UHGV virus genome: UHGV-0057186
Source of the DNA: a virus
Length of the DNA stretch: 64,000 nucleotides
Strand: one strand, 5' to 3'
This document shows positions 7,485 to 41,281 of the stretch, piece after piece (position 1 is the first letter of the stretch; each line of letters begins with the position of its first letter). A program made the position numbers and the translations under genes. The notes under the pieces are model-generated. The model ran no database searches, was not told where the DNA came from, and saw nothing but the letters and a program-made list of their open reading frames with translations.

Positions 7485-7811
7485 TTATACCTTAGTAATT
7501 TTCAGGTCTGCAAATTTTTTCTTGCGTTGATTTTTCATGCGACGAATAGTTTTATCGGAAATTTCATGCTTTTGATAAGCTTTAGATTCTACACCAAAAG
7601 CTTTAACATCAAATTCTGACAAGATATATTGAACCAACAATTCACGGACAGTATTGCGTCCAATCTTCTGATCATTCTGTTTCATCATTTGATGAAGCTC
7701 TTTTTCCCATTTATCCAAAATTTGAGGAGTTACAATATCGCCTTTTTCTAGCAAAGAAACTACTTTATCATATGCGTAAGAATTGATGGCGTTTTTAATT
7801 TGAATAGTCAT
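7485..7811 (-). CDS. Hypothetical protein
   Basis: 108-aa ORF. Confidence 0.5.
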   Translation of the reverse strand: MTIQIKNAINSYAYDKVVSLLEKGDIVTPQILDKWEKELHQMMKQNDQKIGRNTVRELLVQYILSEFDVKAFGVESKAYQKHEISDKTIRRMKNQRKKKFADLKITKV

Positions 7812-13337: not shown

Positions 13338-13378
13338 AATAAACCCTTACCTTAAATAGATAAGGGTATTTATTATTT

Positions 13379-22436: not shown

Positions 22437-22461
22437 CAGTTTTGTGAAAAATTTTTGAAAT

Positions 22462-32193: not shown

Positions 32194-32726
32194 TTAATAT
32201 TACAGCAGCAGTGTACAGTGTCAATATGGACACTATAAATCTTATCCATATCAGGAGATTTGACAGGCTCATCAATTATATACAAAATTCGCGAAAGCGA
32301 TAAACCTCTGAACTTGCTTCCTTTATTACCGATAAAACTGCGCACAGAATCAGTAAATAAACGAAAACGTATATCATCGCTAGAATAACGAGAAAATTCC
32401 TTTTTAATGTTATTTGCAGAAATTTTAGCGTAAGCTGAAGTATTAGAAAGAACAATAACTGTTCCGCCATCATACAACCAATTAGCAGCAAAGTTAGTCA
32501 CAGCAATTGATTTACCAGATTGACGTCCACCATCTAGTCGAAGTGTGCAGTACTGTTTAAGTAATTCTTCAAATGGCGGGATATAATCGTTTTTACAAAT
32601 TTCTTCTACTCTAGCATCAGAATGGTGTGTAAAAGCATTCATCAGGGATAGATAAGGACCAGTTAAAAATGTTCTCATTTTATTCTCTCTAAATTTGGGC
32701 CATTCCATGGCGCATGAATTGTCCAT
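32139..32726 (-). CDS. P-loop NTPase-like protein
   Basis: 195 aa; GGRQSGKS Walker A-like and LYIIDEP Walker B-like. Confidence 0.45.
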   Translation of the reverse strand: MDNSCAMEWPKFRENKMRTFLTGPYLSLMNAFTHHSDARVEEICKNDYIPPFEELLKQYCTLRLDGGRQSGKSIAVTNFAANWLYDGGTVIVLSNTSAYAKISANNIKKEFSRYSSDDIRFRLFTDSVRSFIGNKGSKFRGLSLSRILYIIDEPVKSPDMDKIYSVHIDTVHCCCNIKCCIGGITRPQFFVIGMQ

Positions 32727-32831
32727 TTCTGTATTTACCCATTACCGCACTTGGGCTCGACCTTATTACAGGTTGGCGGGAATCCCTCATAGAATCATGA
32801 GGTCCAGCTTGTTCCCATATTTCTTATTTGC

Positions 32832-33305
32832 TTATTTGAATGATTTGACGTACTGAATAGAACCTTTACTATTCACGAAAGCGATTTTACCATTTTTATT
32901 ATACATGGTAGCAGTACGCTGATAGCCATAAGTTTGTTTACCAGATTGATAACCAACTAATGCGAAATTATCTTCACCCATTTTATTCTGTTTAGCGCGA
33001 ATACGTTCATGACCGTGTGCCATAAGAACCTTAGCATCACCAGTTGAAATTGATCTACGAGTTTTTTCATCTTCAACTGTATTAACAAAGTCGTCAAATG
33101 AATCAAATTTAGCATGGGATTTATTATACAGTTTTCCATCTACTGCATAATTATATCCCTGTACATCCATCTCAACTTCTGTACCATCATCCAATACAGC
33201 AGTAATTTTTTGACCTTTTTTAAATTTCAAAAGATCAGTAAAAGATTCAGCAATAATTTGAGAATTAATAGCTGCTTCAGTGATAAATTCTTGATATGTT
33301 TTCAT
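32832..33305 (-). CDS. Internal (capsid-targeted) protein, 157 aa
   Basis: N-terminus MKTYQEFITEA is the T4 capsid-targeting sequence with LxE prohead-protease site. Confidence 0.65.
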   Translation of the reverse strand: MKTYQEFITEAAINSQIIAESFTDLLKFKKGQKITAVLDDGTEVEMDVQGYNYAVDGKLYNKSHAKFDSFDDFVNTVEDEKTRRSISTGDAKVLMAHGHERIRAKQNKMGEDNFALVGYQSGKQTYGYQRTATMYNKNGKIAFVNSKGSIQYVKSFK

Positions 33306-33361
33306 ATGTTTCCTTTAAATGTAAATATTTTTGCCGTAATACTTGTACCAGTGTGGCTTCA

Positions 33362-33730
33362 TTAAAATTTTTCATCGAGTCGTTGTTGACTCAATTTAAT
33401 AGCTGATTTGCATGGATTATAATCATTTTTCCATTCTGCTGGAATATCGCTGATGTCAGGAACTTCAGTATCTTTTATACTAAACCCACGTTTTAAGCAT
33501 TCCGTTATAATGTCTGATTGACGCTTTCGCAAAAATTCTAACTTATCGTAAAAGAACGTAACATGACCAGAGCCTAAAATAAACTCGGAAGATATTTTAA
33601 AATCTTTAACCCGCTTACCATTTGCCACATGTTTACGAACTATACCAAAAACACGCGGCAATTCACGATACTCAGCCATAAGATGTTGGTCGGTCAGTTC
33701 AGAAACAAGTGTTAAATTGATACGAGTCAT
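33362..33730 (-). CDS. denV: Endonuclease V (pyrimidine-dimer DNA glycosylase), C-terminus lost by apparent -1 frameshift
   Basis: [29 protein letters not shown]... from ATG 33730 (RBS ggagga); ends ...QQRLDEKF*, while [15 protein letters not shown] is in the +1 frame at 33315..33362. Confidence 0.8.
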
Positions 33731-33757
33731 AATTTCCTCCAAGTAGTTGATGAATGT

Positions 33758-33787
33758 ATAGTATCAAAGTCCTTGGAGGAAGTAAAC
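33758..33787 (-). promoter_or_regulatory. T4-type early promoter of denV
   Basis: Minus strand GTTTACTTCCTCCAAGGACTTTGATACTATACATTCATCAAC. Confidence 0.6.
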
Positions 33788-33788
33788 A

Positions 33789-35029
<1,241 letters not shown>

Positions 35030-38934: not shown

Positions 38935-39078
38935 AAGAATGTTATTTGATTTGTTTAGCAGACCAAATGCGGTCTTTGATGATTTTTTGGAGGTCTTCAA
39001 CATACTCTAGGTCATGAGCATGTGGATTATCTTTAAAACTATAAGCTCGCGCAAGTTTCTGGCCTTCGGTCTTAATTA

Positions 39079-39402
39079 TCAAAAGTTCTTTAAGAATTGC
39101 TTCATACCTAGAGATAATTCCTTTAGCAATATTTTTTCTTGTGCTGCTTTAGGGTCAGCCTTAGGAGCAGGTTTACCAGAAGGTTTTTCGAAAGCCGCGC
39201 CAGTAGCAACCAGGCTTTTCCAGGCGGTGGTAACATAGTTACCCACAAAGCCTTCAGCTCTCATATCGTCGTAGAACTTGTACCGAGATTCGTCAGAAGC
39301 ATCTTTATAAGAATATTTACCAGCTTTAATAGCAGCAGTTGCTACAGCGCGAACATCTGAAGCGGATGCTTCGGTCATTAAAAATTGAGCATAAGTTTTC
39401 AT
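39079..39402 (-). CDS. Internal (capsid-targeted) protein, IPI-like
   Basis: 107 aa; N-terminus MKTYAQFLMTEA capsid-targeting sequence; late promoter and RBS aggaaat upstream. Confidence 0.6.
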   Translation of the reverse strand: MKTYAQFLMTEASASDVRAVATAAIKAGKYSYKDASDESRYKFYDDMRAEGFVGNYVTTAWKSLVATGAAFEKPSGKPAPKADPKAAQEKILLKELSLGMKQFLKNF

Positions 39403-40330: not shown

Positions 40331-40407
40331 TTGGCCAGGGTGAAAGGATTCTAACCTTTAACCTGCGGTTTAGAGGACCGCTACTCTATACAATTGAGTT
40401 ACACCCC
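40331..40407 (-). tRNA. tRNA-Arg (anticodon UCU)
   Basis: Hand-folded: acceptor CGGGGTG/CACCCTG, anticodon stem GCGGT/ACCGC loop CCTCTAA, T-arm AAAGG-TTAGAAT-CCTTT, encoded CCA. Confidence 0.7.
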
Positions 40408-40533
40408 GTAATTAGTTCACAGCAATACCTACTCCAACAATCAAGATGTCTTCACACGAAATTAAGAGAAGAGTGATCAGTTTAACCCCTATAATCGCGT
40501 CAAGTGATATTAATGTGACAACTGTCACAAGTT

Positions 40534-40608
40534 TGGCGGACGTGATAGGATTCGAACCTATAACAAATCGCTTAACAGGCGATCGCTCTGCCATTGAGCT
40601 ACACATCC
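40534..40608 (-). tRNA. tRNA-Asn (anticodon GUU)
   Basis: Acceptor GGATGTG/CACGTCC, D-arm GCTC-AATGGCA-GAGC, anticodon loop CTGTTAA, T-arm ATAGG-TTCGAAT-CCTAT, CCA encoded. Confidence 0.7.
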
Positions 40609-40612
40609 AAAT

Positions 40613-40699
40613 TGGTGGGGAGTGATGGAGTCGAACCACCCGAGTCGCAATGACAATGGATTTACAGTCCACACCGCTACCTCTACGGGATAACTCCCC
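40613..40699 (-). tRNA. tRNA-Tyr (anticodon GUA), class II with long variable arm
   Basis: Acceptor GGGGAGT/ACTCCCC perfect, anticodon loop CTGTAAA, T-arm GGTGG-TTCGACT-CCATC, CCA encoded. Confidence 0.65.
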
Positions 40700-40708
40700 A
40701 AATTAATT

Positions 40709-40783
40709 TGGTGGCCCTGGGTGGAATTGAACCACCATCTGGCGATTATGAGTCGCTTGCTTGAACCTTCCAGCTACAGGGCC
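40709..40783 (-). tRNA. tRNA with CAU anticodon (Ile2-lysidine type or Met)
   Basis: Acceptor GGCCCTG/CAGGGCC, anticodon loop CTCATAA, T-arm GGTGG-TTCAATT-CCACC, CCA encoded. Confidence 0.7.
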
Positions 40784-40784
40784 T

Positions 40785-40860
40785 TGGTGCTGATTGACGG
40801 AATCGAACCGCCGACCTTCTCATTACAAGTGAGTTGCTCTACCTACTGAGCTAAATCAGC
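40785..40860 (-). tRNA. tRNA-Thr (anticodon UGU)
   Basis: Acceptor GCTGATT/AATCAGC, D-arm GCTC-AGTAGGTA-GAGC, anticodon loop CTTGTAA, T-arm GGCGG-TTCGATT-CCGTC. Confidence 0.75.
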
Positions 40861-40865
40861 AAAAC

Positions 40866-40955
40866 TGGCGGAGGCGATAGGATTTGAACCTATGAGTCGC
40901 CGGAGCGACTGCCGGTTTTCAAGACCGGTGCATTAAACCACTCTGCCACGCCTCC
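40866..40955 (-). tRNA. tRNA-Ser (anticodon UGA), class II
   Basis: Acceptor GGAGGCG/CGCCTCC, anticodon stem CCGGT/ACCGG loop CTTGAAA, long variable arm, T-arm ATAGG-TTCAAAT-CCTAT. Confidence 0.75.
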
Positions 40956-40957
40956 AG

Positions 40958-41031
40958 TCTCCATACAAGGATTTGAACCTTGGACCTCCTGATCCCAAAT
41001 CAGGCGCTCTACCAAACTGAGCTACACGGAG
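40958..41031 (-). tRNA. tRNA-Pro (anticodon UGG)
   Basis: Acceptor CTCCGTG/TATGGAG, D-arm AGCTCAGTTTGGTAGAGC, anticodon loop TTTGGGA, T-arm CAAGG-TTCAAAT-CCTTG; abuts tRNA-Ser with 2-nt spacer. Confidence 0.7.
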
Positions 41032-41041
41032 TAAATTAAAT

Positions 41042-41115
<74 letters not shown>

Positions 41116-41120
41116 AAATT

Positions 41121-41207
41121 TGGTGCGAGAAGTGGGACTCGAACCCACAAGGAAATCATTCCGCAGCATTTTAAGTGCTGTGCCTTTACCAATTTGACCA
41201 TTCTCGC
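41121..41207 (-). tRNA. tRNA-Leu (anticodon UAA), class II
   Basis: Acceptor GCGAGAA/TTCTCGC, anticodon stem CAGCA/TGCTG loop CTTAAAA, T-arm GTGGG-TTCGAGT-CCCAC. Confidence 0.75.
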
Positions 41208-41208
41208 G

Positions 41209-41281
41209 CTGGGAATAAAGGACTCGAACCTTTGCATCCTGGAATCAAAATCCAGTGCCTTACCAACTTGGCTAATTCCCA
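41209..41281 (-). tRNA. tRNA-Gln (anticodon UUG)
   Basis: Acceptor TGGGAAT/ATTCCCA, anticodon stem CTGGA/TCCAG loop TTTTGAT, T-arm AAAGG-TTCGAGT-CCTTT; abuts tRNA-Leu with 1-nt spacer. Confidence 0.75.

Follow-up and report, generated by a model that had tools for sequence, protein, structure and literature searches.

The window (the whole 64,000-nucleotide stretch of the virus genome UHGV-0057186 analyzed here) carries denV, the gene for endonuclease V, in an unusual state: the reading frame stops early, and the codons for the C-terminal tail of the enzyme follow in another frame. DenV is a pyrimidine-dimer DNA glycosylase/AP lyase, and the locus raises the question of whether this phage has a broken repair gene, still obtains the complete enzyme in some other way, or merely appears to have lost a base in a poorly covered assembly.

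One missing A in denV

The denV frame begins with an ATG at 33730..33728 and ends with a TAA at 33364..33362, both on the minus strand, and direct reading of its 3' end (CTC GAT GAA AAA TTT TAA TGA AGC) gives a product of 122 amino acids that ends in LDEKF, with the stop codon exactly where the earlier note had placed it. This product consists of endonuclease V residues 1–121, which are 100% identical to those of DenV from phage vB_Eco_EL, followed by F in place of I122, and its residues 1–86 score 52.5 bits (cutoff 23) with the Pfam model PF03013 (Pyr_excise). The orphaned tail is read from 16 codons (ATG AAG CCA CAC TGG TAC AAG TAT TAC GGC AAA AAT ATT TAC ATT TAA), the first of which begins at the A of the denV TAA, position 33362, so that the stop and the ATG overlap as TAATG. 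The earlier note was right about the location of this segment and its homology to T4, but it called the frame +1; it is in fact −1 (equivalent to +2), which we regard as a slip of labeling. Ahead of denV, a GGAGGA motif may serve as a ribosome-binding site, and the start codon of the next gene, at 33305, lies 57 nt past the premature denV stop. The features of the locus are collected in Table 1.

Table 1. Coordinates of denV and its neighbors in the window
Feature	Position	Strand	Remarks
Gene e, T4-type lysozyme, 162 aa	34067..34555	minus	anchor of the locus; ORF; Pfam PF00959 label
Internal-head-protein-like gene, 93 aa, intact	33789..34070	minus	between lysozyme gene e and denV; CDS of 282 nt in relatives
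Shine-Dalgarno-like GGAGGA	33736..33741	minus	~6–11 nt upstream of denV ATG; direct reading (acttggaggaaattATG)
Truncated denV ORF	33362..33730	minus	122 codons + TAA; ends QQRLDEKF; direct reading
A5 run, site of the one-base deletion	33368..33372	minus	A6 in relatives: GAT GAA AAA ATT TTA ATG
Orphaned C-terminal coding segment	33315..33362	minus, −1 frame	residues 124–138 of the intact protein
ipIV-like internal virion protein gene, DUF7412, 157 aa, intact	32832..33305	minus	ORF; annotations of relatives; Pfam label

The cause of the early stop became apparent from comparison with cultured phages. A megablast search with positions 33200..33850 of the window matched 660 phage records, and in the best of these 652 record bases corresponded to 651 query bases. 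In alignments with vB_Eco_EL, Kha5h, ime09, and SH_GT there was a single gap: the window has five As (33372..33368) where all four isolates have six. The A6 version of denV is 417 nt long, encodes 138 amino acids, and is annotated as endonuclease V in each of the four. Across 1.7 kb (32700..34400) the window equals vB_Eco_EL but for the missing A. The difference is thus a one-unit indel in a mononucleotide run with its flanks unchanged relative to vB_Eco_EL, as in a slippage allele, and the earlier claim that the junction is one nucleotide short holds. No A5 was seen in the cultured isolates examined. A search with the 91-nt junction matched 163 phage records, none of them at 100%, and the best 40 of the 163 all span 92 nt. 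Likewise, neither 17 T4-type records nor IMG/VR contained an A5 version of the T4-type junction.

With the A put back, the 138-residue protein matches T4 endonuclease V (PDB 2END, residues 1–137) with an E value of 1.4e-69; its tail has the same length as that of T4, without gaps, and the protein is also colinear with structure 1VAS. Since the match to 2END is at E ~1e-69, the resemblance of the tail to that of T4 is not due to chance. In the comparison with T4, T2, and T6 denV that had been suggested in the earlier note, T4 aligns with the restored protein gaplessly, and T2 and T6 have no denV around gene e.

The phage collection searched does not contain the window itself, and the best match in a 25-kb comparison was slur03 (97.6%). 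Elsewhere in the window, 10 clustered tRNA genes (Arg, Asn, Tyr, Met, Thr, Ser, Pro, Gly, Leu, and Gln) occupy positions 40332..41281; the tRNA-His that slur03 and vB_Eco_EL have annotated between those for Asn and Arg went undetected in this cluster.

Consequences of the frameshift for the enzyme

We assessed conservation in an alignment of 28 sequences, including 26 full-length homologs down to 56% identity. Residues M1, T2, R3, E23, R26, and R117 are invariant in this alignment and K121 is at least 90% conserved; all of them, as well as R22, are present in the protein encoded by the window. We take the alpha-amino group of Thr2 to be the nucleophile, Glu23 to be catalytic, and R3, R22, R26, R117, and K121 to be basic DNA-binding residues. 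What the window DenV lacks is the last 17 residues (122–138), including P126-x-W128-Y129-K130. Conservation reaches at least 90% for P126 and Y129, and nearly all of the 26 homologs have W128 and K130; in the window, none of these four is in frame, the ORF stopping after residue 122. Because P126, W128, Y129, and K130 are conserved among homologs, the lost segment is under purifying selection across the family. Mutagenesis of W128, Y129, K130, and Y131 in the Lloyd laboratory reportedly showed that the aromatic segment contributes to dimer-specific binding. The truncation removes the end of helix 3 together with conserved aromatic residues that, from crystal structures and mutagenesis, are presumably needed for such binding.

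Conservation and this mutagenesis lead us to expect that a protein truncated at 121 would be inactive. We consider it likely that A5 is a loss-of-function or strongly hypomorphic allele, with pyrimidine-dimer glycosylase activity lost or severely reduced. Some residual activity is conceivable, because the catalytic N-terminus and most of the DNA-contacting basic residues are retained. Among the explanations put forward in the earlier note, a denV pseudogene in a UV-sensitive phage is thus the best supported one in its first part, the frameshift being real and family-conserved residues being lost; UV sensitivity itself would be the expected phenotype.

Could useful amounts of full-length DenV still be produced from the A5 allele? 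A ribosome might slip by −1 with tRNA-Lys on A_AAA (33373..33368), or RNA polymerase might add an A. A single −1 slip at A_AAA gives back the wild-type protein residue for residue, tRNA-Lys on A-runs is a classic slippery combination in E. coli (dnaX, IS elements), and the A5 allele persists on several haplotypes with its tail ORF undecayed. On the other hand, the junction (G AAA AAU UUU, in the register GAA AAA UUU UAA) offers only A_AAA_UUU and no X_XXY_YYZ heptamer: tRNA-Phe would be mispaired on AUU, so that re-pairing in the A site is disallowed. No stimulatory structure was found downstream, where 67 nt fold with −4 kcal/mol (z = +0.52), no better than shuffled sequence; the only hairpin near the junction lies upstream and is also present in the in-frame alleles. 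Reading of the sequence near the junction revealed no upstream stimulator resembling a Shine-Dalgarno sequence either. In-frame A6 alleles have exactly these flanks, and therefore nothing has evolved there to promote shifting. The two-frame arrangement is not conserved, close isolates being in frame with A6, and five As are too few for appreciable transcriptional slippage. The yield of −1 slippage is probably basal, below 1%, and we regard a useful supply of full-length enzyme by this path as improbable.

It seems similarly improbable that the shortened enzyme works by itself, or that it is one half of a split enzyme, with reinitiation at TAATG yielding a 15-amino-acid peptide that re-associates with the core. 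Such stop/start overlaps are used for translational coupling in T4-type genomes, the TAATG is precisely at the end of denV, the core keeps Thr2, Glu23, R3, R22, R26, R117, and K121, and the A5 allele has been found repeatedly in nature. However, the ATG of the tail is no more than the codon for Met124 in the in-frame ancestor, and other haplotypes have Ile or Gln at this position; thus, the overlap is fortuitous. No Shine-Dalgarno sequence precedes the tail ATG, non-covalent complementation by a 15-mer would be unlikely at phage expression levels, and the truncation takes the end of helix 3 and the conserved aromatic residues, to which published mutagenesis reportedly assigns a role. The suggestion in the earlier note that the tail is made by another route thus finds no support: relatives have the tail in frame, and the junction has neither an X_XXY_YYZ heptamer nor a structure downstream of it. 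Slippage by −1 on A_AAA at a basal level is conceivable, as is reinitiation at TAATG.

Distribution and origin of the A5 allele

An exact-sequence look-up showed that the very same 122-residue DenV product is encoded by at least 10 contigs. Four of these (L011, L012, L015, and L016) match the window at 100%; run ERR414484, labeled human gut metagenome, is the source of L012 and L016, and L011 is a 167,713-bp SPAdes node with a k-mer coverage of ~4. These four are probably the same phage as the window and do not count as independent evidence for A5. Four further contigs come from other runs or assemblies: L013 (SRR7532976), L014 (SRR36302486), L017 (SRR36302467), and L018 (ERZ27235506). They are 95.5–98.6% identical to the window, that is, 1.4–4.5% divergent from it, and differ in the lengths of neighboring genes, and all four have the same one-base gap. 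A second 122-residue variant (P0127), with four different residues and the ending LNEKF, is on record from 5 contigs, one of them 168.6 kb long; its junction is deduced from the protein alone. The exact full-length counterpart of the window protein (P0147) occurs on 53 contigs; the truncated DenV, with its 10 or more contigs, is therefore a minority allele, yet not a rare one. We conclude that A5 is a genuine allele segregating in natural phage populations on several haplotypes.

An exact-pattern scan of IMG/VR, JGI metagenomes, and GTDB genomes gave no match to the A5 junction. The A6 control pattern, in the same kind of scan, was found at only 2 + 2 loci; these collections sample this lineage poorly.

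To see how the A5 versions relate to one another, we compared haplotypes over a 1.26-kb region around denV. The haplotype of the window differs from its nearest A6 isolate, vB_Eco_EL, at one position only, namely the indel; the haplotype shared by L014 and L017 is nearest to Kha5h (4 differences), and that of L013 and L018 is nearest to slur07 (10 differences). Compared with one another, the A5 groups show 10–18 differences and are not monophyletic. When the indel is combined with polymorphic sites 33204 and 33572, which lie no more than 200 nt to either side, all four allele combinations are present. Because the A5 haplotypes do not group together, the pattern points either to slippage from A6 to A5 that has recurred at a hot spot or to an allele that arose once and was spread by recombination. 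Intense recombination is typical of T4-like phages.

The tail ORF is unchanged, with no decay, at every A5 locus. Its intactness fits a recent origin of A5 and also continued use, and carries no information on selection. The lack of A5 among the cultured isolates examined is, with so few independent A5 strains, statistically compelling in neither direction. One could imagine that the A6 tract acts as a reversible contingency switch, with gut phages toggling to A5 and being able to revert, and with A5 perhaps also supplying a low level of full-length enzyme when ribosomes slip by −1 on A_AAA, or a split enzyme when they reinitiate at TAATG. If so, the A5 allele would be a state open to tuning and not a dead gene, but we give this idea little credence.

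The remaining explanation is that the A5 run is an error of sequencing or assembly, a homopolymer under-called at low coverage in a genome with A6 and an intact denV. This had been the leading idea at first, as the isolates all have A6 and the window has a second frameshift in an A-run (39138), and it was rejected when the exact truncated protein was found in independent, diverged contigs. In its favor, the contig name gives a k-mer coverage of only ~4, and both the frameshift at 39138, which is private to the window, and an intergenic difference at 22461 are changes from A7 to A6. The junction also has no 100% match among phages (the best 40 of 163 matches all being 92 nt against 91 nt), nor was exact A5 present in the IMG/VR, JGI, and GTDB collections scanned. 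Against it, the identical truncated protein with A5 is found in contigs of at least four other runs or assemblies, and these belong to different, divergent phages; it is thus not confined to one assembly or read set. The 122-residue variant P0127 adds a further case, several assemblers applied to ERR414484 concur on A5, and the A6T4 tract is not a typical context for short-read errors.

We also checked the entire window for broken genes by comparison with slur03 and vB_Eco_EL, covering all reference ORFs of at least 50 amino acids. Only two genes are uniquely broken in the window, denV and a gene at 39402..38942. At ~7488, a one-base difference splits a 181-residue slur03 ORF in two; because vB_Eco_EL is split likewise (72 + 109 amino acids), this is a natural fused/split polymorphism that is not specific to the window. 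Since denV and the gene with the 39138 frameshift were the only genes found uniquely broken, and the split at 7488 is shared with vB_Eco_EL, the window assembly is not riddled with indels. With the same allele in other runs, on phages 1.4–4.5% divergent, the error in an A/T homopolymer that the earlier note had considered is effectively refuted, and we deem it highly improbable.

The other broken gene (38942..39402, minus strand) encodes an internal-protein-like product and is a homolog of slur03 RB32ORF133c and vB_Eco_EL EL_144 (157 amino acids). A change from A7 to A6 near 39138 shifts its frame, so that it reads AAQEK and then continues out of frame. Its nearest relatives (RB27, VEc20, and ZCEC15; 99.4%) are one base longer, and the only contigs found to encode the truncated product of 107 amino acids are those identical to the window; this frameshift is either a private mutation or a low-coverage error. 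Two other A-run contractions relative to vB_Eco_EL and slur03, A7 to A6 at 22461/22468 and A4 to A3 at 13340, both seem to lie between genes. Taken with 39138, they point to either slight homopolymer under-calling in a ~4x assembly or ordinary slippage polymorphism.

Comparison with known systems

We propose the following explanation for the denV locus. In a T4-like (Tequatrovirus) phage whose genome was assembled from a human gut metagenome, denV has lost one A, from A6 to A5, a frameshift of the classic replication-slippage type. Because of this change, translation ends two codons later at a TAA, giving a 122-residue protein in which Thr2, Glu23, and the basic residues as far as Lys121 are retained but the conserved tail is missing. 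Its pyrimidine-dimer glycosylase activity would most likely be lost or severely reduced, the phage would then rely on host repair and be UV sensitive like v− mutants of T4, and relaxed selection in the dark gut may let the A5 allele persist. Neither T2 nor T6 carries denV at the e locus, so the gene is dispensable in the T4-like group. The event is of a familiar kind and reveals no new mechanism; its added interest is that the lesion recurs in wild gut phages.

What looks like a homopolymer "error" in a metagenome-assembled phage is thus a real allele of several wild T4-like phages, and because it is real and shared, annotators should not silently repair it. The allele also offers a natural example of the decay of an accessory DNA-repair gene in gut phages, which presumably gain nothing from UV repair in the dark, and a natural truncation for probing the role of the aromatic tail of endonuclease V.

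Other irregular versions of DenV are on record. Four protein entries (P0043, P0141, P0143, and P0003) are 113–121 amino acids long and start at Met18 or later (MAEYRELP); one of them comes from a T4 genome record (UJD20068.1). There are hints here of N-terminal lesions or miscalled starts, that is, of other breakage or misannotation of denV. Another entry (P0134; vB_EcoM_G2540, QBO63362.1), a "pyrimidine dimer DNA glycosylase" of 195 amino acids, consists of DenV residues 1–97 joined to an unrelated Tequatrovirus protein of 92 amino acids, and it looks like a deletion or rearrangement that destroyed denV in a cultured isolate.

Among the closest known systems is T4 endonuclease V itself (DenV; PDB 2END and 1VAS; PF03013), to which the window protein is ~77% identical, gapless over 137 residues, after the A is restored. 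In T4, denV lies near gene e, as it does in the window, and has the same GAT GAA AAA ATT A6 run; in the window, by contrast, the frame breaks after Lys121, and the product of 122 amino acids lacks residues 122–138 with WYKYY. For the v− (denV) mutants of T4, textbook knowledge leads us to expect the same phenotype as for the A5 phages, namely no dimer-specific incision by the phage and higher UV sensitivity.

The earlier note had likened the window phage to the classical v-minus T-even phages, and the likeness holds for the expected phenotype but not for the lesion, because T2 and T6 have no denV at the e locus rather than a frameshifted copy. With tblastn, no denV was detected in the 12–14 kb around e in T2 (AP018813, 58–70 kb) or T6 (AP018814, 58–72 kb). 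In T2, gene e is followed after ~85 nt by an ipIV-like gene, so that ~750 bp (the gene for 93 amino acids plus denV) are replaced by ~85 bp; in T6, regB comes immediately after gene e. T2 and T6 presumably depend on host repair as well, and the absence of denV from their e locus fits the UV sensitivity historically ascribed to them. In the window, unlike in T2 and T6, the whole gene is still present and only a single base short of intact.

With regard to mechanism, a close parallel is slippage of the Streisinger type at A-runs of T4 (the hot spots in rII and lysozyme), through which slippage mutagenesis came to be defined in T4: the window has likewise lost one unit of an A6 run, and this has been found on several haplotypes, as a mutational hot spot would predict, although recombination could produce such a pattern too. 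Those cases come from collections of laboratory mutants, whereas the A5 allele of denV is a natural polymorphism in metagenomes. Finally, the locus shares with programmed −1 sites (dnaX A_AAA_AAG, IS911, and the G/GT genes of the phage tail chaperone) two ORFs offset from each other by −1, with an A_AAA tract at their junction; however, denV has neither the tandem-slippery heptamer nor the stimulatory structure of such sites, and the great majority of its relatives are in frame.
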